From: a virus
Reading direction: 5' to 3' (one strand)
DNA: 64,000 nt
Virus record (IMG/VR): IMGVR_UViG_3300042402_002841
Coordinates: 1-64,000 of that record
The translations under genes and the position numbers were made by a program. Shown here piece by piece: positions 2,772-41,125 of this stretch. Every line of letters starts with the position of its first letter. The stretch's first letter is position 1. The notes beneath the pieces were generated by a model. The model saw only the letters and a list, made by a program, of their open reading frames with translations. It did no database searches and was not told the origin of the DNA.

Positions 2772-2893
2772 ACCATCACTCTATCGGTAGTAGGTCATAA
2801 ACACAACATCTCTAGACAGATTTATCTACAGCCCCTTAGGGGCCCCGATGCTGTATTATCTTTTTATTGATTATTTTTAGGAAGGTCAGACTC

Positions 2894-3145: not shown

Positions 3146-3201
3146 CAAAAAAGTGAACACACTCAAGGGGTGTGTCAGGGTTTCCGCCACCGTTAGTGCA
3201 T

Positions 3202-3390
3202 TTAGATAACAGCGTCTCTAAGCGCTCTATGCACCGAGTATCCGTGTCTAAGGGCGATATCGGTAATCTGTGAATCGCTACCCTCTTCTAGTTCAGAGTT
3301 CTCAATGTCGCTCAGTTGCTCCGTGTCTACGATGTAGCAGTCTGCAGCATTCACGATAGTCCCGCTCTGTGCGTCAATAATAAGTTTCAT
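3202..3390 (-). CDS. hypothetical protein
   Basis: ORF with AAAGGA SD. Confidence 0.55.
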   Translation of the reverse strand: MKLIIDAQSGTIVNAADCYIVDTEQLSDIENSELEEGSDSQITDIALRHGYSVHRALRDAVI

Positions 3391-3440
3391 GGTTTCCTTT
3401 CATAGGTGAGTGGGGATTTCTCCCCACCCACCCAACTTGA

Positions 3441-3854
3441 TTAGGCGCTTATGCGGTCAAACGCTTCACGGAGAGCGTCAGCAAGAAAGCCAACGCCACC
3501 TGTGTCGGTAATGATTTCTTCATCATCTGCGAAACGCATAGCCGACAGTATTTCTTCTGCTGTCACTAGCGCCACGAGAAGGACACGCTTGCGGTCAGGG
3601 TGTAGGCTAGGTTGTCCATCCACTTCGCCATTTTCGTTGAGTGGCGCAGCCCAGCCACTAGTAGTTACCGCTAATCCAGCGATTTTTAGTGGTGAGTCTA
3701 TTTTTTGACTAAGCAAGTGATAAACATCAAAGCCATTTCCGATAAGAAATGTCTCGCCCGTTTCTAGGACTCCATAGAGACCTGCTTCGGGAAGTCGTGC
3801 GTCTTGGAAGTCTTGTTCACGCACTATTTTTTCTGCTATTTCTTTTGTGTTCAC
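3441..3854 (-). CDS. hypothetical protein
   Basis: GTG start after AGGAG SD, downstream of the conserved promoter at 3914. Confidence 0.65.
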   Translation of the reverse strand: MNTKEIAEKIVREQDFQDARLPEAGLYGVLETGETFLIGNGFDVYHLLSQKIDSPLKIAGLAVTTSGWAAPLNENGEVDGQPSLHPDRKRVLLVALVTAEEILSAMRFADDEEIITDTGGVGFLADALREAFDRISA

Positions 3855-3914
3855 CTTTTCTCCTTTTTTGATTGGTGATACTTTTAGGTTATCGGTAGTA
3901 GGTCGCAATCACAA

Positions 3915-4229
3915 CTAAGCAACTGAATAAGTTGGCTTGATTGTTTTTGCGATAAACGAACCGAGACTATCTGCGAACATCATGTCAAAGATGACAGAGT
4001 GAGGAACGCCCTCGTATGTGTAGTGGATGTCGCTAGACTTGTACTTGACCACAAGTTCCTTTGTTACAACATTGTATGACCAAAAGTTGATAGCGGTGCT
4101 ATACAAGGTTGATGACGCAATACTATCGTCATTGAGCCAAGCCATTTCATCATTGGCGTAACGGAGACCCTTACGAACCTCGCCATACTTCTCTGATGTT
4201 GCTATTGGGGTAAGTGCTGTTTCATTCAT
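3915..4229 (-). CDS. KTSC domain protein
   Basis: YN...ELVVKYK...YTYEGVP...MMFADSLGSFIAKTIK resembles the KTSC pattern; leaderless start. Confidence 0.7.
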   Translation of the reverse strand: MNETALTPIATSEKYGEVRKGLRYANDEMAWLNDDSIASSTLYSTAINFWSYNVVTKELVVKYKSSDIHYTYEGVPHSVIFDMMFADSLGSFIAKTIKPTYSVA

Positions 4230-4323
4230 ACCTTCAGATTATCGGTAGTAAGCAGTAAGCACAACCTGTATTTATTTTTTTCTTCATGTTGTGATTATCA
4301 CTTACAACCTGTACCTTGTAAGT

Positions 4324-4740
4324 ATGAAAGAAAAAGAAGAACTTGTACGACTGGCAAAAGAACTAGACGCTCTTATGCCATTACCTGACTCACCTGAAGA
4401 TGAGAAAGTCCCTGTCATGTTTGGCGAGGGTGGCTTCATTGTCATGGGTGATAATGGTTCACCACTAATCTTAGGGACATACAACGACCCTGAAGTGATG
4501 TTTGGTGACAAGTCAATCTCGCCGTTCGCAAACGGCTTCGGACACTTGTTCGCCGTGAACTATGGCGCACTTTTTGATGAAGATGAGGACACCCTTCGGG
4601 CTATGCGTGTCATTGTAGGCGTAACAGCAGACGGACTCGCTACTAGCGTCTTTCGTGACCTCTTGACAAACGAGATTATCTTCATAGATGAGAACTGCGA
4701 GCAGACACCGTTTGACCCCGTGTTGGGAATGTTTGAGTGA
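4324..4740 (+). CDS. hypothetical protein (leaderless)
   Basis: ATG 35 nt after the promoter at 4289. Confidence 0.65.
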   Translation: MKEKEELVRLAKELDALMPLPDSPEDEKVPVMFGEGGFIVMGDNGSPLILGTYNDPEVMFGDKSISPFANGFGHLFAVNYGALFDEDEDTLRAMRVIVGVTADGLATSVFRDLLTNEIIFIDENCEQTPFDPVLGMFE

Positions 4741-4919
4741 GAAAGTTGAGAAACCTTGCCGAACAGGAGCCCCGTGCTCTTGCTCCTAAGTTATTGCTTG
4801 CGCTCTTGGGTGCTGGCTATCTTATTCTGTTCGTGTGGTCGGGGCTTGCGCTCGCACTCGGAGTTTTTACTATCTACATACTTTTCCTACTAAACATTAT
4901 TAGAAAAGTTTTAGATTGA
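4737..4919 (+). CDS. small membrane protein
   Basis: Two hydrophobic stretches; start overlaps the upstream stop. Confidence 0.5.
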   Translation: MRKLRNLAEQEPRALAPKLLLALLGAGYLILFVWSGLALALGVFTIYILFLLNIIRKVLD

Positions 4920-4980
4920 GGTTGTCATTACAACTTACAACCGATAATCTGAAAGTACCACCAAGTAAAAGGAGACAAAA

Positions 4981-5400
4981 GTGGCACAACAAAAATCCAT
5001 AAATGTAAAGGTGACTACGGCAAAAGTCATAGAAGCCTTAGAGAAATCACTTGCTAGTCGCAAGAAGATAATGTCTGATTATGAAAAGTCAGGACAGGCT
5101 CACGAAAAGGCTGTCGCTGATTGGGAAAAGTCAGTCATTGAGTATGTCAAGTCAGGCAAGGCAAAACCTACTCAGGTGTCGCAGTCCAATAACTGGCGAA
5201 CAGACACAAAGGAAGCATCTATCCTGATTACACTTCCAGCGAGCCTTGTATGTCCTGAGAAGCCCGACACGCCACGCGAGGTATGGAATCTCAATTCAGA
5301 AATTGAGGAACTGGAAAACGCTATCGCTCTGCTCAAGATGACAGACGAGGAGTATGTATCTACTAGCACCTACCGAGGCGTTTCTCGTCTAATCAAATAG
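4981..5400 (+). CDS. hypothetical coiled-coil protein
   Basis: GTG start, AAGGAG SD, conserved promoter upstream and hairpin downstream. Confidence 0.7.
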   Translation: MAQQKSINVKVTTAKVIEALEKSLASRKKIMSDYEKSGQAHEKAVADWEKSVIEYVKSGKAKPTQVSQSNNWRTDTKEASILITLPASLVCPEKPDTPREVWNLNSEIEELENAIALLKMTDEEYVSTSTYRGVSRLIK

Positions 5401-5559
5401 TTCCCACTCACAGATTGGGTGGCAGTCCTAGTGGCTGTCCACCCATTTTGTGTGCCGAGCGGGGCTCGGCTACGAGCACGAAAAATCTTTGTCGGTCAGG
5501 TTGTGGTTGTTACCTACAACCGATAATCTGAAAGTACCTACTACTAAAGGAGATAAAAA

Positions 5560-6045
5560 GTGGGCTTAGACCAATACCTTACAGCGAAGAAGTTTCTTTC
5601 GCCCTCAGAGTGGCGTGGAGAAACTGTGAACGCACAGTACGACACAGTCGTCAAGGCTATTCAGGCAGAGAAATTAGTAAACTCGCCGTATCCTTCCGCT
5701 TCTGTGGAAATTAGCGTTGGCTACTGGCGTAAAGAAAACGCCATTCACCAGTGGTTTGTAGACAACTGTCAAGACGGCGAAGATGATTGTCGTGAGGCTC
5801 GTGTTAGCCGTGAGCAACTTGAGACACTGAAGTCTGTATGTGAAACGATTTTGCTTGACAAGCAACTCGTGAAAACAGATGACCTCGCTAAGGAGATGTT
5901 ACCCACGGCTTCAGGTTTCTTTTTCGGCTCTACCGACTTTGACGAGTGGTACTACAAAGGGCTAGAGGACACGATTGAGATTATCAAGCATTGTCTTTCT
6001 CCCCAGTTTGAGGGCTGGGAGTTCTACTACCAATCATCTTGGTAG
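5560..6045 (+). CDS. conserved phage hypothetical protein (MGLDQY...YWRKxNAIHxWF family)
   Basis: Recognisable motifs YWRKENAIHQWF, GFFFGS, YQSSW; SD AAGGAG. Confidence 0.75.
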   Translation: MGLDQYLTAKKFLSPSEWRGETVNAQYDTVVKAIQAEKLVNSPYPSASVEISVGYWRKENAIHQWFVDNCQDGEDDCREARVSREQLETLKSVCETILLDKQLVKTDDLAKEMLPTASGFFFGSTDFDEWYYKGLEDTIEIIKHCLSPQFEGWEFYYQSSW

Positions 6046-6156
6046 CAGGGCGAGGGGGGCGAGAGCCCCGAGTGGGGTTCCCCTAGTGACATCAGTCAGG
6101 TTGTCATTAGGGGTTACTACCGTTATCCTGACGCAACCCCTATGAAAAGGAAAATT

Positions 6157-6423
6157 ATGAACATTATTGAGACGCAATCAAAGCCGATTACATCACTAGC
6201 ACGAACAGACAATGGCAAAGTGGACATCAACGCTTACATCAACCTAGAAGGTGTAATCAGTCAAGACGGCTTGAGTATCGCTGTGAAGACAATCGGGGCT
6301 CGTGTTCGCTACGGACATCTTGATTTAGAGATTGTTCCAGTTGCTGGAACTGGTCACCGTTGGATTGAGCGCAAAAACATTCTTCTAATGAACGACCCTG
6401 CGCTAAATACTTCTCCGTTCTAA
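6157..6423 (+). CDS. hypothetical protein
   Basis: ORF downstream of the promoter at 6101. Confidence 0.55.
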   Translation: MNIIETQSKPITSLARTDNGKVDINAYINLEGVISQDGLSIAVKTIGARVRYGHLDLEIVPVAGTGHRWIERKNILLMNDPALNTSPF

Positions 6424-6460
6424 GGTTGTCATTACGACTTACTACCGATAAAGTGAACTT

Positions 6461-6613
6461 ATGAATACATACAAAGTTGTTCGCTTCTATAAAGACGCAA
6501 TGCGTGACAAGAAAGTGATTCTCACAGGTCTCACTTTAGAAGATGCGCAAGCACACTGTAAGCGTGAAGACACCCGTGGTGACGACTGGTTTGATGGGTA
6601 CGAAGAGGAATGA
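6461..6613 (+). CDS. 50-aa hypothetical protein (leaderless)
   Basis: MNTYKVVRFYKD...AQAHC...WFDGYEEE; ATG 35 nt after the promoter at 6426. Confidence 0.65.
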   Translation: MNTYKVVRFYKDAMRDKKVILTGLTLEDAQAHCKREDTRGDDWFDGYEEE

Positions 6614-6837
6614 AAATTCCTTTCCGCCACCGTAAGCAGATTAGAAAACACGAAAATGCCCACAGGGAACACCTAAAAGGGCTGGAATCCAAGAATGTAA
6701 CCAACCTGCGCATCGGGGCCTCGGGCGCTGCTGACGCAGGTATGTTCTTGGATAAATCTAAAAAAGACTTGGTAAATGTTGTCATTCCCACCTACAACCG
6801 ATACATTGGAAGTATGAGTGGGAAGGAGGTGAACCAA

Positions 6838-6981
6838 ATGAACAAGTCTTACCGTGTGGCTATGGCACAGGCTCTCTTGACAGAGTTGGCTGAAGCAGTA
6901 GCCCGTTACGGCGCAGACAACGAAGGCGTAAAGCGTCTCCACCGCATGGTGCGAGCGATGGTCGCTGAGTTGTTAGCCTAA
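6838..6981 (+). CDS. 47-aa helical protein, paralog of 14101-14244
   Basis: MNKSYRVAMAQALLTELAEAVARYGADNEGVKRLHRMVRAMVAELLA; GGAGGTGA SD; second in-frame ATG at 6814. Confidence 0.75.
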   Translation: MNKSYRVAMAQALLTELAEAVARYGADNEGVKRLHRMVRAMVAELLA

Positions 6982-7004
6982 CAACTAACGGAACCGCCAT
7001 TGGA

Positions 7005-7220
7005 ACGGCGCTCGGGGGAGCGTGGCAACAGAATCCCCCAGCCCCCCACAGGCGTTGCCGTGGGCGTTCACAGAGCATGGCTCTGAGGCGCAGGCAAAGC
7101 GAGACCCGTACGGGTGCCCCGCTACAAACTTTGCTTGCGTTGGTACTCAGAGTGCTGTGAACACCTACGGGAGCGTCGGCACGGGGCTTTTCTTCCCACT
7201 CTTTCAGCCCTGTGCCGATT
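7005..7220 (+). ncRNA. putative structured RNA: long imperfect hairpin plus terminal hairpin
   Basis: 7058-7099 pairs with 7129-7170 using G-U wobbles and bulges; followed by the TCGGCACGGGGCT/AGCCCTGTGCCGA hairpin. Confidence 0.55.
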
Positions 7221-7268
7221 GCCCATTCTCAGGTTGTGATTATGACCTACAACCGATAAAGTGAAATT

Positions 7269-7490
7269 ATGGATACAAAATACGACATTGCGTGTAAGCG
7301 CAAGTTCTATGAACTACTAGAAACTCACGAGCGACAGGCAGGTTACTCACCTAGTCAGTTACTGTCCGTGATGATTGTCATGGAGTGTGAGAAAGAAAAG
7401 GCTATGAGCCTGATTGACGAACACGCTCACGGATTGGATTGGTCTGAGGCGACTTGGACTGAGTTGCGTGATTACTTCCAAAATGTATGA
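7269..7490 (+). CDS. hypothetical protein (leaderless)
   Basis: ATG 35 nt after the promoter. Confidence 0.65.
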   Translation: MDTKYDIACKRKFYELLETHERQAGYSPSQLLSVMIVMECEKEKAMSLIDEHAHGLDWSEATWTELRDYFQNV

Positions 7491-7693
7491 AGTTACTCAT
7501 TGACTTGATAAAGCAAGAGTACGGCGTTGCGGAGTGCGAGCACCTGATAGGCCCCGACCCTTGCGCCAAACTTGACCGACTCACCGAAACTATCGTATTG
7601 GAGTCGGGGCTATGGCGCGTGCGTGATGTGTGCGCCGAGTGCAGAGACGAGGCGTTGAGTCACCCAATAGGGAAATTGAACAACGGGTTGTGA
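7487..7693 (+). CDS. hypothetical Cys-containing protein
   Basis: ATGA overlap; CxxC motif. Confidence 0.55.
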   Translation: MKLLIDLIKQEYGVAECEHLIGPDPCAKLDRLTETIVLESGLWRVRDVCAECRDEALSHPIGKLNNGL

Positions 7694-7722
7694 TTACGAC
7701 TTATAACCGATAATCTGAAGGT

Positions 7723-8148
7723 ATGACTACTACAGACACGCTCAAGGGCGAAATTACTAACACCTGCACCTGCAACCTTTTTGAGGAAGATGGTGAAGAA
7801 AAGTCACTTGACGAAACTTACAACACTGGTTGTTTCGGAGATTGTTGGGAGTTCGCAGTTGAGGACTTTGCAATGATTACCGAGGAACTTCGTGACTCCA
7901 ACGAAACTGGTTGGTGGAAGGTTGAGAATCTTCGTCTATGGAATGGCGACACTGGTGGACTCTTTCCTGCCGACACGGTAGCGAAACTCATTGAGGGCAT
8001 GACCGTTCGTAGCGAGTGGACAATGCGCTATGAAGTATTTGCAGACCGCATTGAGTACTCACTGTCTCACCATGACGCACCTACTGGTAGCACCACAACC
8101 GTTCGCCCAGTCACGGAAGATGAGCGTGAGGAATGGGGGTTGTACTAA
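7723..8148 (+). CDS. hypothetical protein (leaderless)
   Basis: ATG 35 nt after the promoter; CTC, CxxxC and SHHD motifs. Confidence 0.7.
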   Translation: MTTTDTLKGEITNTCTCNLFEEDGEEKSLDETYNTGCFGDCWEFAVEDFAMITEELRDSNETGWWKVENLRLWNGDTGGLFPADTVAKLIEGMTVRSEWTMRYEVFADRIEYSLSHHDAPTGSTTTVRPVTEDEREEWGLY

Positions 8149-8459
8149 TGGCTCAAGGCAAACGACATTCAGACGAATACCTGCGTGAAGTCGCCCGTGT
8201 GTACAACGAGGCGTTTGAGTCCCGTACTTTAGTTCAAGTTCACGGGTTTGTACAAGAGGCAGTAATGAAGCACTTTGACATACCGCTAACAACCGCAACG
8301 AAACAAATAATGGAAGCCCGCAAACGGGGCTTTATCCTCACAGCCAAAGAACTAAAAACTCAACTGAAACAAGACAAGTTGCAGAGAGAGTACGACAAGG
8401 CAAAAGAAGCAGTGGAGAGGTTGTCATTACAACTTACAACCGATAAGGTGAAGGTATGA
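8148..8459 (+). CDS. HTH-like hypothetical protein
   Basis: EAVMKHFDIPLTTATKQIMEARKRG; TAATG coupling; its last codons overlap the next promoter. Confidence 0.55.
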   Translation: MAQGKRHSDEYLREVARVYNEAFESRTLVQVHGFVQEAVMKHFDIPLTTATKQIMEARKRGFILTAKELKTQLKQDKLQREYDKAKEAVERLSLQLTTDKVKV

Positions 8460-8806
8460 AACGAGCATTAGTTATCCCAGCAGAATCCGCACCTACAACC
8501 ATCATGGTTGAGGATAATCACATCACTATCCGTAACATCGTTGGCGGTTGGTTTGATTGTGTGCGCCAAAAATCCTTTCATGGCTATGTCAATGACACTG
8601 GCTTGATTGACGGACTTCCTTTCAACCCTGTTGCGAGCATTGTGTTCGGTCAGGTCATCTGTGGTGACGCAGTCCTGTTCGGCTCTCTCAATGCTCAAGG
8701 CGAGTATGACGGTTATGAACACGCCATTGACCCAGCCATCTGTGAAGCGGTACGCCAGCAGTGGTTCCTGTTCAAGACGAACGCTAACGCAGGAGTGAAG
8801 TCGTAA
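8456..8806 (+). CDS. DUF3846-like protein
   Basis: IVGGWFDCV...YVNDTGL...LPFNPVAS...ICGDAVL pattern. Confidence 0.65.
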   Translation: MKRALVIPAESAPTTIMVEDNHITIRNIVGGWFDCVRQKSFHGYVNDTGLIDGLPFNPVASIVFGQVICGDAVLFGSLNAQGEYDGYEHAIDPAICEAVRQQWFLFKTNANAGVKS

Positions 8807-9108
8807 TGGGGTGGGTTATTTACTCATTCATTCTCGGTTGGGTCATCGCCAAGCACGACTGGTCTGACTTGTTCAGCGAAGCCCCGATGGACTGTACACA
8901 CGCATGGGAAAACAACCATTGTTATGCGTGTGGAGTAAATCGCTAAGGGCTTTCCGCCACCGTCAGAGGATTAGAAAACACACAGTTCTGGTCGGGGCTC
9001 GTGCCCTTCTTCCCACTCATAAACGAGCCCTGACCACCCTTCTCAGTTGTATAAAAAAATGTTCTTCCGCAAGTTGTTATTATTACTTACTACCTATAAT
9101 CTGAAATT

Positions 9109-9360
9109 ATGAGCAATTTACCCCCAGGCTGTAGCCATAGCGACCTTCCAGGTTGGCACGACATTGAGCGTGACTTTGACTTCTATTGTGAGTCATGCGA
9201 CCACGAGTGGACAGAGGTGGATTACACCGTTGATAGTCGTGGTGGTAGCGAGGTTGAGTCCAAGTGTCCGTTGTGCGGAGAACCGCACACGATTGAGGAT
9301 AATCCCGACTACGACAATAGCCCTTCTTACGAGGATTGGGTTGACGCAGGGCGACCCTAA
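9109..9360 (+). CDS. zinc-ribbon protein (leaderless)
   Basis: CESC...CPLC; SNLPPG N-terminus. Confidence 0.7.
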   Translation: MSNLPPGCSHSDLPGWHDIERDFDFYCESCDHEWTEVDYTVDSRGGSEVESKCPLCGEPHTIEDNPDYDNSPSYEDWVDAGRP

Positions 9361-9413
9361 CCACCCGAACTGGTGAAGTTGTTTTTTGTACCTACTACCG
9401 ATAAAGTGAAATT

Positions 9414-9623
9414 ATGAACGGCGAAATAATAGACATTCAGACACGGAATCTTGACGGAGAACAAGCAACAATGCTAATCGTCAAGAACCACAACATCTAC
9501 GAGGTCACCTTGACTCTTGACGGCAATACTACTAATCGTTACAAAACTTCAGAACTAGAACTGTGCTACCTATGGGCACAGGGACAGATACGGAATCACG
9601 GTTATTCTGTGGAGTATGAGTAA
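9414..9623 (+). CDS. hypothetical protein (leaderless)
   Basis: ATG 35 nt after the promoter. Confidence 0.6.
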   Translation: MNGEIIDIQTRNLDGEQATMLIVKNHNIYEVTLTLDGNTTNRYKTSELELCYLWAQGQIRNHGYSVEYE

Positions 9624-9805
9624 TGGGTTTGCTCTCGCACATTCTCGCCTATCAGGTAGGCAAACGGCGGGGCAGGCGCAAGACCCAACGCACGATTGTG
9701 TACGCTCACGAAGGCGACCCCGTGTGTGTGAACTACGAAAGTTTCTGCCTAAATTACGGCAGTTGTGACGGAATGGAATGTGATTATGAACACGATGAAA
9801 TGTAG
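9623..9805 (+). CDS. small Cys-rich protein
   Basis: Coupled ORF. Confidence 0.5.
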   Translation: MGLLSHILAYQVGKRRGRRKTQRTIVYAHEGDPVCVNYESFCLNYGSCDGMECDYEHDEM

Positions 9806-10151
9806 CAACTGTGAAACCGAAGTTCCTGATGAACTCGGTGACTACACATACGGTCTTTACCTAGACAGCGTTGCAATGGGTTACTACGGTGGCTTTATTG
9901 ACAACTTCCCGCCGAGCGAGAGCCCAGCGTTTTGGATTTGTCACGATTGCGTGGTCAAGGTCATTGAGGTTCTTCCCAAGTTGCGTGGATACCTTAGTGG
10001 TGGACACCCAAACATCAACTGGGAAAGCGGAGACGGAGACGGGACTGCCTACGAACCGTGCTGTCCATGCGCTTGGACATGGAAAGACGGACAGACCTAT
10101 CAGGTCGGCGCAGACGGAAAATGGGAAAAGAAACACGACAACGAGTTGTAA
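9795..10151 (+). CDS. Cys-rich hypothetical protein
   Basis: CSNC, CHDC and CCPC motifs; start uncertain. Confidence 0.6.
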   Translation: MKCSNCETEVPDELGDYTYGLYLDSVAMGYYGGFIDNFPPSESPAFWICHDCVVKVIEVLPKLRGYLSGGHPNINWESGDGDGTAYEPCCPCAWTWKDGQTYQVGADGKWEKKHDNEL

Positions 10152-10180
10152 TTAGTACCTACTACCTATAATATGGTGGT

Positions 10181-10489
10181 ATGACTGATTACATCTACTA
10201 CAACAACCTAACCGACACACAACTGCTTGACCTCATTGACGAGCACTACTACTCCATTGGCGCAACTGGCGCACAGGCGTTAGAGGCATTGCGTGAGGAC
10301 ATTCCTGCTTGGGAGACCAAGCACGGCGTACCACAGGCTCGTATGGAAATCGTCTTGGGGTGGTTTGAGAACTCTCTCATTGAGCGTGGGCTACTTGATG
10401 TGGTCGCTGGTCTTATCGTTGGTAAGCCAATGACACGCAAAATGAAGGTTGGTCGTTTCGCACGAATGATTAGAAAGGTTGGTCGCTAA
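10181..10489 (+). CDS. hypothetical protein (leaderless)
   Basis: ATG 35 nt after the promoter. Confidence 0.65.
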   Translation: MTDYIYYNNLTDTQLLDLIDEHYYSIGATGAQALEALREDIPAWETKHGVPQARMEIVLGWFENSLIERGLLDVVAGLIVGKPMTRKMKVGRFARMIRKVGR

Positions 10490-10706
10490 TGCGTAAGCAC
10501 ATGGCTCAGCGCCGTTGGACACCTGAAGAACGGCAACTCTACATTGACGGTGTGGGTAGACCTCGTGCCTCAACCATTCCATGCGCCAAACGGAAACAAA
10601 ACCGTCTAGCGTGTAGAAAATGGAAATGATTACCTTTTATGTTGTTGGAAGTTTCTTCTTCCTTTTCTTTGCTTTTTGGATAAAGAACGGATAACTTCGG
10701 GGCTCT

Positions 10707-10895
10707 ATGGCGCGATACAAATGCGAAATCTGCGATGAAGAGATTGACCCGAAGGGGAGTACTACACTCAGGCTTTTGACTGGCTGGGTGAAGGGCGCAT
10801 CAAACACAATCAAGCAAACCGAAACAAACCATTACCGCTTTGTTCATGAGTTCTGTCAGCCCCGAGCAGACGAGAACCAACTACCTTTGTTCTAA
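10707..10895 (+). CDS. small zinc-finger protein
   Basis: CEIC...HEFC; ends QLPLF, resembling a beta-clamp binding motif. Confidence 0.55.
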   Translation: MARYKCEICDEEIDPKGSTTLRLLTGWVKGASNTIKQTETNHYRFVHEFCQPRADENQLPLF

Positions 10896-10949
10896 ATAAA
10901 TCTTTCTAGCGAGGTTGTCTTTTCTACCTCATACCGATACATTGGTCTT

Positions 10950-11258: not shown

Positions 11259-11306
11259 TTTATCGGTCAGGTTGTTTTTTATACCTACTACCTGTAATAT
11301 GAAAGT

Positions 11307-11411: not shown

Positions 11412-11592
11412 CCCTTTCCGCCACCGTACATAGATTAGAAACACTTATTTTTGGGCGGTTGCCCCGATTGTGTTTTTGCGTTTCTGACCCTTGGGTCTGC
11501 GGATAATTTAGTTGCACACTACAAGTAAATGTTTCACGCGAAACATTTTGGGCGAGGTTGGTTTTGGTACTTACTACCTGTATCTTGAAAGT

Positions 11593-11877
11593 ATGGCAGT
11601 TAGTCAAGCCGAGCGAAATACGCAGGCGAATGTTTCACATGAAACATTGTTGTTAGTATTGGAGAACCGAGTGCAATCCGCACAAGGTGCAACACGAGCA
11701 TGGGCAGAACAGATGGTCTCCTATGTAACCAAAGCGACCCAGCAGGGCATGACAGCCCACTGGGCACGAGTCATTCAGCAGTGCGCAACTTCGCTCGCTG
11801 AGGCGGCGACCAAAGAGGAAGCGCTCACCGAAATCCTGCGAGGGCTAAAGGGAGAACACGCTCTCCACCTCGGTTAG
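11593..11877 (+). CDS. hypothetical helical protein (leaderless)
   Basis: ATG 35 nt after the promoter at 11558. Confidence 0.65.
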   Translation: MAVSQAERNTQANVSHETLLLVLENRVQSAQGATRAWAEQMVSYVTKATQQGMTAHWARVIQQCATSLAEAATKEEALTEILRGLKGEHALHLG

Positions 11878-11961
11878 TCGGGTCGGGTCGGGTGGGAAAC
11901 TGCCCGACCCAATCTCGGCGGTCAGGTTGGTTTTACGACCTACTACCGATAACATGAAATT

Positions 11962-12123
11962 ATGAATGAGACAGAAGGTAAGACAATGGAAACTTGGGAC
12001 AAGGTCATTGAGGACATCGCAGACAAGAAAGCGAAGAACGAAGAAATTGACGCAGTGCTTGAAAAACATAAAATTACTGAGCGTGAGTTGCTAGTTGCAA
12101 TTTGGGAGAAAGCGAAATCGTGA
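11962..12123 (+). CDS. 53-aa hypothetical protein (leaderless)
   Basis: ATG 35 nt after the promoter at 11927. Confidence 0.6.
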   Translation: MNETEGKTMETWDKVIEDIADKKAKNEEIDAVLEKHKITERELLVAIWEKAKS

Positions 12124-12419
12124 GATTCCACGAACGACTCAAGTTGCGCCAAGAAACGGAAGCAAAGTTGCGTCGTGAGGAGAAACGGCGCAAACGGAAC
12201 TGGAAGCGAACTGCTGGGCTCCCAGCGTTCTGCTATTCCTGTAAAAAAGAGATGACTTACAAGGAACTTTTTTCACGCAACGCAGGTCGTCAGAACCCGC
12301 ACGGAAAGAACAACCGTTGTGAGAAGTGCTTTGATGCGGAGTTGAACAGCCCAGCAGATGACTTTGGAGGGGGAGAGAACTACGCAGGGGAAGAAATTTG
12401 GTGGAAACTCGCACCATGA
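12102..12419 (+). CDS. zinc-finger hypothetical protein
   Basis: CYSC...CEKC; start uncertain. Confidence 0.5.
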   Translation: MGESEIVRFHERLKLRQETEAKLRREEKRRKRNWKRTAGLPAFCYSCKKEMTYKELFSRNAGRQNPHGKNNRCEKCFDAELNSPADDFGGGENYAGEEIWWKLAP

Positions 12420-12641
12420 TAGAAGCCGACATTCTTGGACTCATACTCCGCTACTTGGAAGTTCCAGAGATGCGTATGGATACCTCAAAGAAAGAGAACC
12501 TTCTTTGGTTACAACGCAACTTACCTATCAACAACGGGGCTACCCCTGAGGTGGAACGAGCCCTGACACTAATACGACACAAACTCAAAACTTTTTCGTA
12601 GACAGGTTGTTTTTAGTACCTACTACCGATAATCTAAAAGT

Positions 12642-12899
12642 ATGTCAGTTACTATTGAAACACCAACAGGTAGCGTCACAGTCACTTCAACAGGTGACTT
12701 TGTCTGTTACAACGCAAAATCCGAAGCAATCACCACTTGGGTCTATCAAGGACTTCACAACGCTCTCGCCGTTGTTTGGGGTGACAAGATGTACACATAC
12801 CTAGATGTTGAGTTCTCCGAAATTCACGCAATGATGTCGGCAGATAGCCTCGGTAAATTTATCAACGAAGAAATCAAGCCAAAGCACAAATTCTTCTAA
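12642..12899 (+). CDS. KTSC domain protein (second copy)
   Basis: YTYLDV...AMMSADSLGKFINEEIKPKH. Confidence 0.7.
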   Translation: MSVTIETPTGSVTVTSTGDFVCYNAKSEAITTWVYQGLHNALAVVWGDKMYTYLDVEFSEIHAMMSADSLGKFINEEIKPKHKFF

Positions 12900-12959
12900 C
12901 AGTTCCCACTCACAACAAGAACCCACCTGCCAACTCGGTAGGTGGGTTTCTTACTGCCT

Positions 12960-13211
12960 CTACTCGGTTGTGTCGGGGCTCAGACCACGCATGGTCATGT
13001 AGCAGTCGTTGAGCGCATGGAACAAGTCTGAGTGACTATCGCTTTCAGCAACTGTCTGTCCATTGTTTGTAATCGTGACCGTCCACAGCCCAGCGTTGCG
13101 AGCAAAGTTCATATCGCAACCCCATATCGTGAAGAAACGGCAGTATTGCTCAATGTCGTAGCCACTTACGGTTGGCGGTTGTGATGAGTATGTACCCCAA
13201 GAAATTGGCAT
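12960..13211 (-). CDS. hypothetical protein
   Basis: ORF opposing its neighbours and converging on the hairpin at 12918-12952. Confidence 0.45.
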   Translation of the reverse strand: MPISWGTYSSQPPTVSGYDIEQYCRFFTIWGCDMNFARNAGLWTVTITNNGQTVAESDSHSDLFHALNDCYMTMRGLSPDTTE

Positions 13212-13313
13212 GGGCAAACAGTAACACACGGGGCCCCTGACTGCGAAGAAAAAAAGTCAATAAAGTTGTGCGGTCAGGTTGTTTATTGTACCTACTACCG
13301 ATAAATTGAAGAT

Positions 13314-13724
13314 ATGACAGCAACAACAGCCGAGCGTATTACGCAGGCGAAAGTCCACTACGATTACCGTCAGGTCACTTATGTATGGCAGAACCCTGTC
13401 CTAGATAAAGACTGGGACGGAACCCCTGCAGGCGAGCAGGTGGAGTTGTGTTTCGCACACGACCCCAAGCGCAAGCAATACACAGCGACCATTCGCCTAG
13501 TGTGGTGGCAACCCAACGACCGAGGTTTCACCGTCACCATGTACGCACCATTTGACGGAGTGACCTACCCGTCCTCACGGTTTCACAACGAGTCTGTCGC
13601 CCGATACGGCGAGAAGTCATTTGAGAACTTTCAGTTTGAGACTCTCGGACTAATCGCAGACCTTGACCTTGCCACTAGCGAGACAGTCCTCGCAAAGTTG
13701 CTGAAGAAAGTCCTGTCGTTCTAG
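13314..13724 (+). CDS. hypothetical protein (leaderless)
   Basis: ATG 35 nt after the promoter; terminator hairpin follows. Confidence 0.7.
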   Translation: MTATTAERITQAKVHYDYRQVTYVWQNPVLDKDWDGTPAGEQVELCFAHDPKRKQYTATIRLVWWQPNDRGFTVTMYAPFDGVTYPSSRFHNESVARYGEKSFENFQFETLGLIADLDLATSETVLAKLLKKVLSF

Positions 13725-14100
13725 TTCCCCTCATCAGGTGACTCCCCTGCCTACATGGTGGGGGAGTTCACTTGGGGCAAACGCTGGGCTACTGAACACG
13801 CAGTCGCAAGTCCTTTCCGCCACCGTACATGGATTAGGAAACACACATTCCTGCCCCCTTCCAACTCAGGGGTGACTTCCTGTGAGAGAGACCCTGCCCT
13901 AATCGGGTGGGGTTTCTTTTTTATCCCCGTGTCGGCAGCCCAGGATTTCGTCTAGCGCAACTGGGAACCCTGGGCTCCCCGCGCGAGCGCAGGCGCAGGG
14001 GTGTGGGCGCAGAGAAGGTTGCGTAAAAAAATGTTGGTGGCAGGTTGTTTTTTGTACTTGCTACCTGTATTATGGACTTATGAGTGGGAAGGAGGTGAAA

Positions 14101-14244
14101 ATGAATAAGTCACATCGTGTGGCGATGGCGCAGGCTCTCTTGGCAGAGTTGTCTGAAGCCACTGCACGCTACGGTGCGAACAATGACGGTGTCCGCCGTC
14201 TCCACCGTTTGGTGCGAGACATGGTCGCCCAGTTGCTCGCCTAA
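14101..14244 (+). CDS. 47-aa helical protein, paralog of 6838-6981
   Basis: MNKSHRVAMAQALLAELSEATARYGANNDGVRRLHRLVRDMVAQLLA. Confidence 0.75.
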   Translation: MNKSHRVAMAQALLAELSEATARYGANNDGVRRLHRLVRDMVAQLLA

Positions 14245-14501
14245 GGCGGTCAAGCACACTTGAGTCGGACTCGGCGCTCGGAGGGGCGTGGCAACAGAAC
14301 CCTCACGGCGGGCTCACCCTTTGGGGTGGGCTTTTTGCTTGCCCCCGTTCGGGAGCCCAGCATCTCGCCTTTCGGGGGGTTGCGCAAGCGAAAACGCTGG
14401 GCTGTTTGTTTGCGCAGAAACTAGCAAGCAGGCTTGGTAAGTTGCTCAAAAAAATCTTCCGCAAGGTTGTTTTTTGTCCTTACTACCGATAATATGAAGG
14501 T

Positions 14502-14627
14502 ATGGGATTACTACCTTTCAAAGACCAAGAAGAATACGATGCCTACTTTAGTAGGTGCTTAGAATGCGAGCAGGCAGATAGCGTGTTCTGTGACGAGTGC
14601 GAAGATAAGAAAGACGAGGAGGAATAG
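14502..14627 (+). CDS. 41-aa Cys-rich acidic peptide (leaderless)
   Basis: CLEC...CDEC; ATG 35 nt after the promoter. Confidence 0.6.
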   Translation: MGLLPFKDQEEYDAYFSRCLECEQADSVFCDECEDKKDEEE

Positions 14628-14753
14628 CCGTGACGACCTTTCTAGTTCTATACATGGGTGCGGGTGTAGGTGTGACAGCCTTGCTTGCAACCTTCCTAGC
14701 GAAATAGCCCAAAACCTACTTGACCAGCCCAGCAATTGTGGCTAGTATCACTA

Positions 14754-14824
14754 ACAGACCTCACCACACCCCCACTCATGAGGCGATAGATGCCCCCGAC
14801 CTGAAAATGGTTGAGGGGCATTTG
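14754..14824 (+). ncRNA. putative ~70-nt sRNA with C-rich loop
   Basis: TTGACC-17-TAGTAT promoter (14720-14748); hairpin CCTCA-ccacacccccactca-TGAGG; terminal hairpin ATGCCCC...GGGGCAT. Confidence 0.5.
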
Positions 14825-14964
14825 TCGTATTATGGGTAGATGACAAATGAAAACGCTGGGCTCCCGCCTGAGGAAAAAAAGAAGAAAAAGAACAAGCCAC
14901 GCTTCTTGCAGAAAAAACCCAAGCGAGGTTGTCGTACCTGCCTATAACCTATATCCTCAGAATC

Positions 14965-15285
14965 ATGTTAGCAAAAGATGCAGAAAACTTTGACCCAAGC
15001 GAAGTGGCGGTCAAGCCTCTAACACGAGACGACATTCAGGAACATCTTGATGCGTTAGGAGAGACAGCACTTTTGATGGATGGGTTTGACGAAGCACTCA
15101 TCGGGTTTTCACAGCGCATCAACGCCCCGTTTCTTGCCGTGTACTCATGGGAAAAGATGATGGATGTCTGTATGGAGCGTGACGGAATGACTTGGGAAGA
15201 AGCAGAGGAGTACATTAGTTTCAACTGCATCGGGGCTTGGGTCGGTGAGCAGACTCCGATAATCGTTATGCCCGTAGTTTTCTAG
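14965..15285 (+). CDS. conserved phage hypothetical protein
   Basis: DGFDEALIG...DGMTWEEAEEYISFNCIGAWVGEQTP family pattern. Confidence 0.75.
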   Translation: MLAKDAENFDPSEVAVKPLTRDDIQEHLDALGETALLMDGFDEALIGFSQRINAPFLAVYSWEKMMDVCMERDGMTWEEAEEYISFNCIGAWVGEQTPIIVMPVVF

Positions 15286-15339
15286 GTAAATTTTACTCAC
15301 CATGTTGCAATAGGTACTTACTACCTGTAATATGAATGT

Positions 15340-15513
15340 ATGAACGAAACTCAAGTCGTCACAAAAAAGCCAAAGGCTTGGCGTAATGGTCGGTACTATT
15401 ACTGCCTAAGCCATAGCACGAAGCAGGTCATTGACCACGAAGTTATCTACGAAGGTGACACCGCCCTATGGGAAGGTCGCAAGTGCGACTGGTGTAAAGC
15501 AGGTCTGAAATGA
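15340..15513 (+). CDS. small Cys/His protein (leaderless)
   Basis: CLSH...CDWC. Confidence 0.6.
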   Translation: MNETQVVTKKPKAWRNGRYYYCLSHSTKQVIDHEVIYEGDTALWEGRKCDWCKAGLK

Positions 15514-15769
15514 AAGACTGGACACAAGAAGAAGTAGAAGCCTACGATGACTTCATGGAGTCATGGGCGAACTCACACATGTGTGACCAGCAAGAAGATG
15601 ATGACCGATAAGCCCCCTTTGGCTCTTCACCTAAAAGGTAGGAATGGTATTTTGCAAACCTATGACGGGGCTACTCCTTGCGTAGTTACCGCATGTGGTT
15701 GGGTAAATCCACCCGAAGATAGAATGGCGTCTGACATTAGTGAGACGACCTGCGTTTTGTGTTTAGAAA

Positions 15770-16012
15770 ATGCTTACTGACAGCCCATACGAGATGTTTA
15801 TAGAGCGAGTGTATGCCTCTTACGAACACCCAGCAAACACTAAAAACATTGGACAGGTTTTCTTCACAAAGTTGAATAAAGAGCGCCCCGCTATCGCATC
15901 TCGTATTAAAGACACCATGTTTGACCCACGCAAAAGCGACTTCCTCCACCCGAAGATTGTTGATACAGTTCGCTTGCAATGGGAAGAAGAAGACAACCTC
16001 TCATCTGACTGA
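15770..16012 (+). CDS. hypothetical protein
   Basis: GQVFFTKL...RPAIASRIKDTMFDP pattern. Confidence 0.6.
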   Translation: MLTDSPYEMFIERVYASYEHPANTKNIGQVFFTKLNKERPAIASRIKDTMFDPRKSDFLHPKIVDTVRLQWEEEDNLSSD

Positions 16013-16084
16013 TGGACTCGGGGCTCCTACACAAAGAGTTCCACTCAGGTTGTGATTCGTACTTACTGCCGATATCATGGAAGT

Positions 16085-16248
16085 AAGTGGAAGTGAAAGC
16101 GGATACTGGTGGAAAAGGCTGACGCCAACCGAAAGGTTGGAGGTTATGCGGTGAACAAACATAATCAAAGCAGACCACACAACAATTAGTTTCTGCTAAC
16201 GGGAAACGGGAAACAAACCTCACGAGAAATCGTGGGGTTTTTTCTTTT
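16085..16248 (+). ncRNA. putative small RNA
   Basis: Conserved promoter (16050); no ORF longer than about 12 aa seen on +; CCAACC-GAAA-GGTTGG hairpin; U-tailed terminator. Confidence 0.5.
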
Positions 16249-16598
16249 ATCCACCCACGCACAGCCCAGCGTTTTAGATTGCTGTTTCCAACGGTTGTGT
16301 AATTGCTTTCCGCCACCGTAAATGGATTAGGGATAACACATTCGCCTTTTCGGCGCACACGACACTCATTTGTTTATTTTATTGGTTTTGTTTTAGGGAT
16401 GGTTTCTGGCTCGGTTTTTCTGGTTCTGGCAGCCCAGCCTTTCTACTTCCCTGAACTCAGAACCCTGGGCTCCCCGCGCGCGGGCGAGCAAGCAAAAAAG
16501 TGATGGGGTAAGTTTCAGAAAAAAATGTAGTCGGCAGGTTGTTTTTTGTACCTTCTACCGATAAAGTGGAAGTACAAGTGGGATGGAGGTGAAAAATT

Positions 16599-16742
16599 AT
16601 GGAAAATGAATGCACATGTGCAGGTGACCCTGCGCTCGCCTGCACGGGCGAGGTCGTCATGCGTGCGGTGGGGTTCCCTGCGGAGCCTGAGCCGTTCTGC
16701 GTGGCGCATTGGGAGCAGACCCTAGACGCACTGGGGCTCTAG
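16599..16742 (+). CDS. 47-aa Cys-rich peptide
   Basis: GGAGGTGA SD; MENECTCAGDPALAC...FCVAHW; UUCG hairpin follows. Confidence 0.6.
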   Translation: MENECTCAGDPALACTGEVVMRAVGFPAEPEPFCVAHWEQTLDALGL

Positions 16743-17049
16743 TCCTCGTGCGTTGTCCCCACCTTCGGGTGGGGACTCTCGCCATGCCCCCGTTCGGGCA
16801 GCCCCGTCGCTCCCTTTCAAGCAGTCAATGCGAACATCAAACCAACCTGAAGTTCACGCCAAAAGTCATTTGGGAAGCCCAGCCTTTCATCTTCACGCAA
16901 GTCAAACTGCTGGGCTCTTGGGTGCACCGCAAAAACCGCAATAAAGTTTCGCAAAAAAATGTTGTAGCAAAGTTGTTATTGGTACTTACAACCTATAACA
17001 TGGGTGTTGTTGGGAATCCCCCCAACCTCGTCCTGAAAGGGGACACTCC

Positions 17050-17271
17050 TTGTCCAAATCCACAGCCCTTCGCTTTTCTTTAGCGACACTTCTATCTCGG
17101 CTCTCATTCCGAGTTTGTCCGTTAGAGTTCAAACGCCGTTTCTGTGAAGAAGTGGAAGAACTCATTGAGGACATGGAACCACTCAACAACTGGACGCCCA
17201 ACGAGTGGGAAACTTGGTCAGCAGACGGAACACGACGCCTACCTGCTGGCGGTCGCACAGGGCGCTTCTGA
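17050..17271 (+). CDS. hypothetical protein
   Basis: TTG start; SD lies inside hairpin GTCCT-GAAA-GGGGAC; terminator at 17298-17333. Confidence 0.4.
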   Translation: MSKSTALRFSLATLLSRLSFRVCPLEFKRRFCEEVEELIEDMEPLNNWTPNEWETWSADGTRRLPAGGRTGRF

Positions 17272-17382
17272 CGATAAGCCCTCACCCCACAACAGAGACC
17301 CCGTGCGAGTTCCCTCCCTCGCACGGGGTTTTCTGCTGTCTGCCCCCGAACGAAACAGCAAACGCTGGGCTATGATGCAGGC

Positions 17383-19290
17383 GTGAAACAACTCAAACTT
17401 GATGACGACCACCTAGTTCTTGACTTTCCATACGACCCAAGCGAAGTGGCTCAGGTGAAGGGGATAAAAGGTGCGAAGTGGGACAAGGTATCCCGTGTGT
17501 GGCGAGTGCCGATGTCAAGCCTCACAGAGGCAAGAGAGTTCGCTCAGACGCACGGCTTTGAGATAGACACCGAGGTACTGCTGTTCACCTTGCCAGCCCC
17601 CAAGAACGAAAAACGGGGCGTCACGGCCATCGGAAACTGGCTGATGATGTCCTTTGGGTACGACAGAGTAATGGTTCAGTCAGTCAAACAAGTTCCAGGA
17701 GTTACATGGGACAACAAAACCCACTCGTGGCGAGCCCCGATGACAAGTATCGCCGAGGTAGTGAAGTGGGCTGACACCTTCAAACAACCCGTACCTGAAG
17801 ATGTGCGACAAATGCTTACAGAAATAAACAACTCCATGTCAGAACTCAGTAATGCTTCTCGTCAAACTGACGCTGAACTGGAAGTTGCTGGGCTCCCGCT
17901 TCTTCCGTATCAACGAGCAGGAGTTGCATACGCTTCAAACGCACGGAGAACTTTCATCGCTGATGAGATGGGCTTGGGTAAAACACTACAAGCCATTGCG
18001 ACACTGGAGTATGTCTCCGACTCATATCCAGCCGTTGTCGTGTGCCCCGCAACACTCGTACTCAACTGGAAAGCCGAATACAACAGGTGGCTCCCACACA
18101 GAACTGTCAAGGTCGTAACCGACAGGAAGGAGTTCCCTTCTGACTATGATGTGGTCGTTATTGGTTATTCTAACATTAGTAACTGGGAAAAGCAACTTTT
18201 GAACCACAAATCTTATGTGTTTGACGAAAGCCATTACTGCAAGACCCCTAAAGCACAACGAACAAAGAGTGCGGTAAAGATTGCAAAATCAGCCCCGAAA
18301 GATGGCATCGTACTGTGTCTTACGGGAACTCCAGTTACCAACCGACCTGCCGAATACGCAAGCCAACTCAACATCATCGGGAAGTTAGACAAGTTTGGTG
18401 GAGAGTGGGGCTTCTACAGACGCTATTGCGGGGCCTTTAAGGACAAATGGGGACAATGGCATCTTGATGGTCACTCAAACTTGGATGAACTCAACGAGCG
18501 ACTTCGTTCCACTTGCTACATCAGACGCACTAAAGAGCAGGTTCTTACCGAACTGCCACCCGTTTTGCACAACCCTGTTCTGGTTGACGGGACTGCGGCG
18601 GGATTAAAAGAATACAAAAAAGCAGAAGCAGACATCGTTGCATACCTCGTTCAGCGAGCAAAGGAAATCGCTCAAGAACTTGGACTTAACCCGAACTCGG
18701 CTGCGGTTGTAGCAAAAATCAAAGCAGAGTCAAACCAGCATCTTGTCCGTCTATCCGTACTTCGCCGTTTGTCAGCCAAAGCAAAAATGCCAGCAATCAA
18801 GGAGTGGGTGGAGTCCCGTGTTGCCGACGGAAAGAAAGTCGTAATCGCTGCGCACCACAGGGATGTAGTAGACGAACTAGCACTTGCATTTGGCAACCTG
18901 CGTATTCAAGGGGGAATGGACATTACTGACATTGAGGAACAGAAGCGCAAGTTTATTGAACTTCCATGTGAAGAAGCGCCAGTCATTGTTCTCTCAATCC
19001 AAGCGGCAAAAACGGGGCACAACCTTCAGATTGCACAAGATGTACTTTTTGTGGAACTTCCTTGGACACCTGCTGATGTAGACCAAACTTATAGTCGGTG
19101 CCACAGGCTTGGACAGAAGTCTTCCGTCACCGCTACTTATTTGTTATGTGATGGAACCATAGATGAGGACATCTACTCACTGATTGAACGCAAGCGTGGT
19201 GTTGTCAATCAGGCTGTTGATGGCGGTGGCCCCGCTGATGAAGACAACTCTGTTCAAGAATTGCTGTTCAAATATCTAAATAAAGGGTAA
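17383..19290 (+). CDS. SNF2-family helicase with two N-terminal HARP-like domains (SMARCAL1-like)
   Basis: ADEMGLGKT, DESH, LTGTP and QTYSRCHRLGQ motifs; two FxYD...VKxxxGxxWD...W repeats. Confidence 0.85.
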   Translation: MKQLKLDDDHLVLDFPYDPSEVAQVKGIKGAKWDKVSRVWRVPMSSLTEAREFAQTHGFEIDTEVLLFTLPAPKNEKRGVTAIGNWLMMSFGYDRVMVQSVKQVPGVTWDNKTHSWRAPMTSIAEVVKWADTFKQPVPEDVRQMLTEINNSMSELSNASRQTDAELEVAGLPLLPYQRAGVAYASNARRTFIADEMGLGKTLQAIATLEYVSDSYPAVVVCPATLVLNWKAEYNRWLPHRTVKVVTDRKEFPSDYDVVVIGYSNISNWEKQLLNHKSYVFDESHYCKTPKAQRTKSAVKIAKSAPKDGIVLCLTGTPVTNRPAEYASQLNIIGKLDKFGGEWGFYRRYCGAFKDKWGQWHLDGHSNLDELNERLRSTCYIRRTKEQVLTELPPVLHNPVLVDGTAAGLKEYKKAEADIVAYLVQRAKEIAQELGLNPNSAAVVAKIKAESNQHLVRLSVLRRLSAKAKMPAIKEWVESRVADGKKVVIAAHHRDVVDELALAFGNLRIQGGMDITDIEEQKRKFIELPCEEAPVIVLSIQAAKTGHNLQIAQDVLFVELPWTPADVDQTYSRCHRLGQKSSVTATYLLCDGTIDEDIYSLIERKRGVVNQAVDGGGPADEDNSVQELLFKYLNKG

Positions 19291-19663
19291 TTGCAAGGTT
19301 GTTATTTGTACCTGCTACCGATAAAGTGATAGTAAGACAAGAAAGGAATACACATGGACTTGTCAATTAGTATCCACCCAATGCTGGTGGTAACAATCAT
19401 CACAGCATTTATTGCGCTTCGCATCATGCGGTTTGAGAAACGGGGCACCCGTGTGCGCAAAATAATTCGCAAGTAGGAAGGGCTTTCCGCCACCGTTAAC
19501 AGATTAGGGATATTTGTTAGGGTTTGCTTGCGCCCCTCACTACCATTATTCACGACTTTCGGTGGGTTTCGTTTCGCAATCCTGTGGATAACTTTTTTCT
19601 TCCGAGGTTGTTTTTTGTACCTTCTACCTATATCATGGAAGTATGAGTGGGAAGGAGGTGATT

Positions 19664-41119: not shown

Positions 41120-41125
41120 CGAATA

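Follow-up and report, generated by a model that had tools for sequence, protein, structure and literature searches.

A strand-locked 13-bp element across a family of uncultured phages, with a tentative role in RNA pairing

What does a short asymmetric DNA word do when it keeps to one strand of a phage genome while the genes around it change direction? Asymmetric 13-bp motifs in multiple copies are recurring and largely unexplained features of actinobacteriophage genomes. The instance considered here lies in IMG/VR virus record IMGVR_UViG_3300042402_002841, a viral contig of 132,392 bp. Its first 64 kb are the stretch that was analysed (the window), and they contain the 13-mer TTTCCGCCACCGT seven times, always in exact form and always on the + strand. 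The case is unusually clean: the copies run into the hundreds, in no fewer than 78 contigs, their strand bias is total, and two gene contexts would give complementary RNAs. It leads to three sharply different, testable models, namely RNA pairing, an antisense promoter, and a directional protein site. The 13-mer is a real, strongly non-random, family-wide polar element. As to its function, we tentatively favor an RNA tag/anti-tag pair, in which C-rich words of early transcripts would pair with G-rich leaders of replication-module transcripts, and we put the probability of this reading at roughly 0.3. The seven copies, together with the conserved letters that follow them, are these.

3181-3193, + strand: copy 1 (G variant at the variable core position), 35 nucleotides (nt) past the stop of the rightward open reading frame (ORF) 2867-3145.
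6621-6651, + strand: copy 2 with N5-GATTAG-AAAACAC, starting 7 nt past the TGA of ORF 6461-6613.
8951-8981, + strand: copy 3 with N5-GATTAG-AAAACAC.
11415-11444, + strand: copy 4 with N5-GATTAG-AAACAC, unpaired in minimum free energy and centroid folds.
13814-13844, + strand: copy 5 with N5-GATTAG-GAAACAC.
16307-16339, + strand: copy 6 with N5-GATTAG-GGATAACAC, about 57 nt past a canonical + strand terminator at 16215-16250.
19484-19507, + strand: copy 7 with N5-GATTAG, starting 7 nt past the TAG of the short ORF 19354-19476 (read by eye).

A preliminary description of the window had reported these seven positions as exact and confined to a single strand. A window scan that allowed up to two mismatches bore this out, with no further match on either strand. 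Shuffled versions of the window contained 1.04 matches on average, and none of 100 shuffles attained seven. The 11-nt core TCCRCCACCGT, which is invariant in the family described below, finds the same seven sites, with 0.01 expected. The near-regular spacing that had been noted also stands: the gaps of 3440, 2330, 2464, 2399, 2493, and 3177 bp have a coefficient of variation of 0.17, which was equalled in 0.025% of 100,000 trials with five interior points placed at random. The rightward arrays of relatives are spaced more loosely, at 1.4-4.4 kb. All seven copies are intergenic, as first described, relative to ORFs with coding-potential or homology support, and they mark the right-hand ends of rightward gene blocks. 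Copy 1 additionally lies 8 nt ahead of the stop of a leftward ORF (3202-3390). Six copies had been credited with the tail N5-GATTAG-(R)AAACAC. GATTAG does follow 5 nt after the 13-mer in six of the seven, but (R)AAACAC comes next in only four of them; GGATAACAC takes its place at 16307, and nothing alike is seen at 19484.

The termini of the contig (1-227 and 132166-132392) overlap by 227 bp with one mismatch, within a gene for a 497-amino-acid protein. Because its ends overlap, the contig is taken as a circular or permuted assembly (the record labels it linear); its completeness is estimated at 88%. The earlier statement that the motif does not occur beyond 20 kb is accurate inside the window, but four more + strand copies with one or two mismatches lie near the far end of the circular contig, at 128252, 128661, 129556, and 130588. 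Three of these read TTTCCACCACCGT and one reads TTTCCACCACCGA. Across the junction, the cluster thus comprises 11 copies over about 23.6 kb, with consecutive gaps of 409, 895, and 1032 bp among the left copies and of 2.3-4.8 kb thereafter. Allowing one mismatch at most, a scan of the contig finds no copy on either strand outside this cluster and no - strand copy anywhere. The variable core position R is G in all seven copies in rightward gene context and A in all four in leftward context.

How far does the element extend beyond this contig? A 14-mer scan of viral contigs gave at least 119 loci, and 44 of the listed matches had DNA similarity to the contig. A second, protein-anchored set was built on relatives of a protein with an HA domain and a sigma-70 region 4 (HA/sigma-4), which are encoded in 296 contigs; the best 78 newly fetched loci were counted. 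All 78 hold multiple copies, amounting to 330 distinct copies on one strand versus 1 on the opposite strand. The exact word is present in 41 of the loci, and each of its 132 copies is on the strand of the HA/sigma-4 gene. The other 37 loci contain CTTCCACCACCGT or CATCCACCACCGT, at 4-10 per locus and again on the strand of that gene. In five whole relatives, 9, 9, 5, 9, and 1 copies were found, each set one-stranded and confined to some 20 kb; the control, a pattern in reversed form, had no match in these five. The genome-wide scan and spacing statistics, proposed at the outset as a check, find the motif neither scattered at random nor on both strands. The family core is constant while family proteins are only 30-85% identical between genomes, and a logo of 103 copies has a common A/T-rich block 6 nt past it. 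Among the listed multi-copy matches of a genome scan for CRISPR-like repeats, the periods are 15-45 nt in multiples of 3, which marks them as coding repeats. The papers listed by a literature text search with four 12-mers of the motif contain them only as primers or in unrelated sequences.

The strand lock is set against genes that flip. Among the 330 family copies, 123 lie between two leftward ORFs and 98 inside leftward ORFs, whereas 19 lie between two rightward ORFs and 27 inside rightward ORFs. One third of the copies inside leftward ORFs (33/98) fall in the final tenth of the frame; such copies are read as TV[VA]E or [DY]GGG[KR]. In relative L021, the 13-mer starts 4 nt past a stop codon. 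In both contexts, the TTTCC end faces the gene end, and the larger non-coding space is on the opposite side. The complement of the 13-mer was first said to oppose the genes. This is true of the window, but beyond the window edge and in most related contigs the complement is co-directional with leftward genes. For 25 of the 330 copies, its distance to a start codon is -3 to +2 nt; among random positions the figure is 7 of 330.

This last feature recalls the start-associated sequences (SAS) of Cluster K mycobacteriophages and Cluster EF Microbacterium phages, which in the available text of the reports lie 3-7 bp before nearly every associated start (PMC3203893, PMC7302621, PMC12699233). The EF consensus given there contains GGAAAGG, and the function of SAS is described as open in 2011 (PMC3203893) and still called unverified in 2025 (PMC12699233). 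As far as these accounts go, SAS share with the 13-mer a 13-bp asymmetric form, one orientation, a non-structural region, and occurrence across diverged relatives. That SAS precede unrelated genes across subclusters, sometimes overlapping an upstream stop codon, is counted as a likeness too. The 13-mer might be strictly a translation-initiation element that serves the gene downstream, the window copies being relics. Its form, its restriction to non-structural genes, and its enrichment beside start codons agree with this, and the end of the complement, GGAAAG(G), is similar to AGAAAGG, the form of ribosome-binding words in relative G003. However, the complement is within 11 nt of a start codon in only 64 of the 330 family copies (37 of 330 random positions), so that, unlike in SAS as described, start-codon placement is confined to a minority. 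Moreover, none of the seven window copies precedes a gene in the needed orientation, though all are exact; they sit, again unlike SAS, after the stops of genes on the other strand. We consider it very improbable that the element serves translation initiation alone.

A further parallel is the 18-bp asymmetric intergenic motif of Cluster EC Microbacterium phages, which is reported to have no known function. Like the 13-mer, it sits in an actinophage's small intergenic regions with its copies, 12 in number, all oriented alike. Unlike those of the 13-mer, the EC copies are all described as lying 21-30 bp upstream of starts and following the genes (PMC7302621). The form of the element is that of the known actinophage 13-bp motifs. 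What is new are its strand rule and its placement after the stops of opposite-strand genes.

Early genes of the window have a signal of their own. The cassette GTTGT-N7-ACYTnCTACC-N2-TAnnnT has a -35-like TTGT separated from a -10 hexamer by a 17-nt spacer. The window contains 32 such cassettes (27 on the + and 5 on the - strand; 0 expected), and the contig contains 35. In the window, the cassettes span 2073-22207 (for example, 6425-6454, 14044-14073, and 19607-19636). Their orientation is always that of the gene, nearly every early gene has its own, and in most the ATG comes 6 nt past the hexamer, so that the mRNAs would be leaderless. The cassette is a predicted sigma-A-type, mostly leaderless early promoter. 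In relatives, its architecture is kept and the spacer words differ, which suggests a lineage-specific regulator. Because the early genes have this separate, direction-following cassette, the 13-mer is not the early promoter. Four or five cassettes lie between consecutive 13-mers, the next one 120-230 nt beyond each window copy. If the cassettes are promoters, a rightward RNA containing the 13-mer is nearly certain, since the copies follow stops with no terminator between. The structures near copies 1, 4, and 5 are the following.

3156-3176, no strand assigned: hairpin ending 4 nt left of copy 1, with a T run next on the - strand, terminator-like.
11271-11300, + strand: early-type cassette with AAC in place of ATG, with no start codon or ORF ahead of copy 4.
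11373-11411, + strand: 14-bp hairpin ending 3 nt (5 by other stem boundaries) before copy 4.
11437-11477, + strand: hairpin past copy 4, terminator-like, with a U run.
13884-13923, + strand: strong hairpin downstream of copy 5, terminator-like, with a T run.

The cassette at 11271 is a candidate promoter for a non-coding RNA of about 170 nt, with a start site placed by the cassette. The fold of 11340-11480 has z = -4.0 and the order hairpin, unpaired 13-mer, terminator; the predicted product is of the shape of a small regulatory RNA. A similar arrangement is seen at 16049-16250, where a cassette has AAG in place of ATG, no ORF follows, and the terminator at 16215-16250 forms the end; this region, which includes a G-rich word similar to the complement of the 13-mer, is a candidate for a second non-coding RNA, about 165 nt long. 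Around 100 family copies, intrinsic terminators gave few matches and the hairpin tendency 35-60 nt rightward is modest; strong hairpins are slightly enriched on either side of the copies.

The four left copies belong to a leftward replication-initiation module. The genes at these copies encode an O-like initiator (phrog_16167, 5e-12), a helicase loader (phrog_2289), a DUF1599 protein, and small unknowns, and the one rightward gene of the module (contig 129596-130018) encodes the HA/sigma-4 protein of 140 amino acids. The complement stands ahead of leftward ATGs by 8 nt (129556), 17 nt (128252), and 56 nt (130588). In the favored reading, the 13-mer would act as RNA in two classes of oppositely transcribed messages. 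Rightward early transcripts would contain the C-rich UUUCCGCCACCGU after stops or in non-coding RNA, often unpaired between hairpins. Leftward replication-module transcripts, which comprise those at the four left copies and at most copies in relatives, would contain ACGGUGGYGGAAA(GG), the exact complement of that word, at the 5' leader and ribosome-binding region or close to it. Such RNAs would be able to form GC-rich duplexes of 13-21 bp. Abundant early transcripts might then mask the leaders of the initiator, the helicase loader, and their neighbors, or expose them to a double-strand RNase, or the effect might run in reverse; in each case, the onset of replication would be tied to early expression. 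The resulting network would set a fixed 13-16-nt leader tag against its complement after early-block stops and in a dedicated small RNA.

The positions and strands of the copies, their complementarity, and the promoter cassettes are directly visible in the DNA; from them, we infer that the cassettes are active, that the two RNAs are present together, and that their pairing may regulate. If so, the strand lock despite flipping genes and promoters is accounted for, because RNA complementarity needs the word on one DNA strand, and the invariance of the word follows from a many-to-many pairing network. Bulk early transcription would then time or throttle the replication genes through many-to-many RNA pairing. 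Every cross pair of a rightward and a leftward copy has a G.U at the variable core position, where the leftward RNA has U. Shared flanks lengthen the complementarity to 21 nt for 6621/129556 and to 19 nt for 8951/130588. Gram-positive small RNAs of the 6C and RsaE/RoxS type use C-rich seeds to mask G-rich ribosome-binding sites. Like these, the element offers a C-rich unpaired stretch that lies between hairpins and a terminator and is complementary to a G-rich leader, here by prediction. Unlike them, its seed is multi-copy and mostly in the 3' ends of early mRNAs, facing a fixed tag on many mRNAs.

The pairing reading is given its low probability because it is drawn at the level of sequence and several facts fit it badly. 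Copy 6 at 16307 lies past a canonical + strand terminator. The copy at the initiator gene is upstream of a leaderless start, within the promoter spacer, and would enter the mRNA by read-through only. Only about one fifth of the family copies have a start codon within 11 nt, and 125 of the 330 are within called ORFs. In G003, where the early genes are leftward, just one copy may be in a rightward context. At 6621 and 8951, fold predictions show the 13-mer as partly paired. Finally, the conserved A/T-rich block is unneeded for pairing and looks more like part of a protein site.

Could the complement instead be the start of an RNA? The preliminary description had likened it to a -10 element plus a fixed start sequence facing the early genes. 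In such a model, the complement is the fixed initial transcribed sequence of minus-strand promoters, which would give replication mRNAs leftward and antisense shut-off RNAs in the window. The element does abut the ORF to be transcribed, sense or antisense, and the additional conservation, GTGTTTyCTAATC, lies upstream of the complement, where promoter elements would be. TAATCT is at -10 distance for a start on GGTGG in three of six window copies, so this part of the likeness remains. In the left module, sigma-A-like pairs precede the complement, TTGACA-17-TATTAT at 129556 and TTGACA-17-TAGTAC at 130588, and starts would fall at or inside it; the genes between 126.6 and 131.2 kb had no early-type cassette in a contig-wide cassette scan. 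However, TAnnnT 4-8 nt upstream of the complement is at about chance level, with 12 matches in 10 of 329 loci. Strong hairpins lie 4-5 nt beyond the complement at 3181 and 11415, with a T run at 3181. G003 would be left without any antisense copy, and a copy in L262 is 66 nt inside the initiator gene. Promoters of the T7, N4, and SPO1 kind are served by a phage-encoded polymerase or sigma factor, and profile searches with PF00940, PF04542, and PF00623 had no match here. In the giant ORFs, PDB sequence searches of three and one atlas look-up found no polymerase, which leaves room for a very divergent enzyme. Minus-strand promoters are, in our estimation, an unlikely explanation. A sigma-A promoter in either direction was separately considered for the whole family and rejected, TAnnnT being found 4-9 nt after the complement in 3 of 103 copies and upstream 12 times in the 329 loci.

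The copy at 128252 raises a different possibility. It lies within the spacer of the sigma-A-type promoter of the initiator gene, TTGATT-18-TATACT-6-ATG, and a 13-mer occupies the 17-18-nt spacer of the initiator promoter in G001, L102, L017, and L066 as well. The element may be an operator or stoperator-like site of a conserved phage DNA-binding protein. When bound, this protein would be a repressor at the initiator promoter, while elsewhere it would have a directional effect on RNA polymerase. Such a site is suited by the asymmetric 13-bp core and the weak second block 6 nt off. The best candidate binder, for which binding is only proposed, is the HA/sigma-4 protein. It has two predicted helical domains joined by a flexible WGPLKPGPATN linker (predicted local distance difference test, pLDDT, 81), and all 16 of 16 homologues, at 40-76% identity, keep the recognition helix LSRQR[VI]HQI without change. 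A fold search with this protein gave weak local helix-turn-helix (HTH) matches, the best at E = 0.075. All 78 loci that encode it have several copies on the strand of the gene, and a copy lies just upstream of the gene in about half of the 41 exact-word loci. In addition, the complement opens with a -35-like TGACG, which we take to be the type of sequence read by region 4 and count in favor of a protein site. However, the co-occurrence of protein and motif is confounded by common descent, and the closeness to stop and start codons is left unexplained.

The likeness to stoperators, suggested at the outset, can be compared with Cluster A mycobacteriophages. In the available text of PMC9283540, the Cluster A repressor (L5 gp71 type) is a monomer with two DNA-binding domains that reads the 13-bp asymmetric stoperator; stoperator orientation tracks transcription and flips between the genome arms, and a reversed site loses repression. 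Measured against that account, the 13-mer resembles stoperators in being 13 bp and asymmetric, with many copies in short intergenic gaps and one in a promoter, and a two-domain HTH candidate binder is present. Contrary to the stoperator rule given there, the copies keep one DNA strand while the genes flip, so that their orientation is independent of local transcription (PMC9283540). Nor is there a temperate immunity setting, since no PF00589 (integrase) or PF00239 (serine recombinase) match was found in the contig at its estimated completeness. The suggestion therefore survives for the form of the site, its promoter copy, and the candidate binder, and fails for orientation and lysogeny. The element may work in a stoperator-like manner, yet it is not a member of the Cluster A system. 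Overall, a protein site appears to us doubtful, to about the same degree as minus-strand promoters.

Two of the left copies enclose a non-coding stretch of 390 bp beside the initiator gene (contig 128265-128660; L131:8265-8660). It contains a conserved GGAGGGGGTTCGGGGGAACC hairpin as well as a segment of 60 nt with 70-75% A+T, its layout is kept in G001 and L262, and it is a probable replication origin judging by these features. The 13-mers might be iteron-like polar replication sites, that is, direct repeats bound by the initiator that set or limit fork direction or titrate the initiator. Every copy is a direct repeat, and the two around the A+T-rich stretch lie by the initiator and helicase loader genes in an arrangement shared with G001 and L262. 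The initiator promoter is overlapped by one copy, which is also the case in rep genes that regulate themselves, and all copies except one are on the same side of the putative origin. Words resembling DnaA boxes are also enriched by window-type copies in relatives, and this region of the contig has one such word.

19583-19591, + strand: exact TGTGGATAA, which we take to be the DnaA-box consensus, 15 nt before the next early promoter.

In relatives L120-L127, DnaA-box words lie just upstream of the first early promoter after the 13-mer and are often paired 12 nt apart. Exact 9-mers number 7, 6, and 9 in 25-30 kb of three relatives, where about 0.2 would be expected. For T5, a preprint puts forward DnaA boxes as the injection-stop signal (10.1101/866236). 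Iterons proper, however, form a tight, helically phased cluster within a few hundred bp, and the 13-mers are widely spaced, at 0.4-3.4 kb. The site is invariant though the initiators are just 35-70% identical, the 124-amino-acid O-like protein matches the C-terminal half of its family only, and the closeness to stop and start codons is again left unexplained. We rate this reading as improbable, below the promoter and protein-site models. For periodic loading sites in DNA entry or protection, the third alternative raised at the outset, the analysis turned up nothing in support and nothing in contradiction.

Several properties place the contig as a whole. The host is probably an actinobacterium, judging by a WhiB gene, the HA domain, DUF2510, and the wide occurrence of leaderless starts. 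The window encodes a helicase, a primase-helicase, and a ribonucleotide reductase, and the portal, a protease fusion, and the large terminase are at 67-77 kb of the contig. Megablast with window positions 3000-20000 had no match to cultured phages, and a primase search among cultured phages found relatives of at most about 31% identity. For an uncultured lineage of freshwater-type actinophages of about 130 kb, the analysis yields a probable origin region together with candidates for a binder and for a small RNA.

Three further ORFs were noted on the - strand. The 3112-amino-acid ORF (window 28352-37690) has a NUDIX domain (residues 1553-1682) and DUF3626 (2915-3006), and for residues 1-1540 the atlas offers only a weak link with a toxin-like domain cluster; its product looks like a polyvalent, possibly injected protein. 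The 2089-amino-acid ORF beside the portal gene (contig 67282-73551; L128:7282-13551) begins with a prohead protease (S78) at residues 1-170 and has a faint sigma-70 region-4-like HTH at residues 1142-1179. The 794-amino-acid ORF (window 49001-51385), among large virion-side genes, has a zeta-toxin/AAA_33 kinase-like domain and DUF3721. Rfam at gathering score found three tRNAs in the window and nothing else, and at E <= 10 nothing meaningful in 2500-21000.

40161-40248: tRNA Ser-tga, Rfam, gathering score.
41047-41120: tRNA Arg-tct, Rfam, gathering score.
43090-43162: tRNA Ile-tat, Rfam, gathering score.

A second intergenic repeat (GGCAGCCCAG ... GAACCCTGGGCTCCCCGCGCG) occurs at 13934-13990 and 16428-16485 and is about 80% identical over about 140 nt. 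Its CCCCGCGCG part is reminiscent of type I-E CRISPR repeats; no Rfam CRISPR-DR match was found. Tandem duplication as the origin of the 2.4-kb rhythm was ruled out, as a single paralogous gene pair was found. These paralogues (6610-6981 and 14080-14244, 78% identical over 55 amino acids) are the first genes after two 13-mers, and several first genes have in common an N-terminal MSGKEV, which is the conserved leader in read-through.

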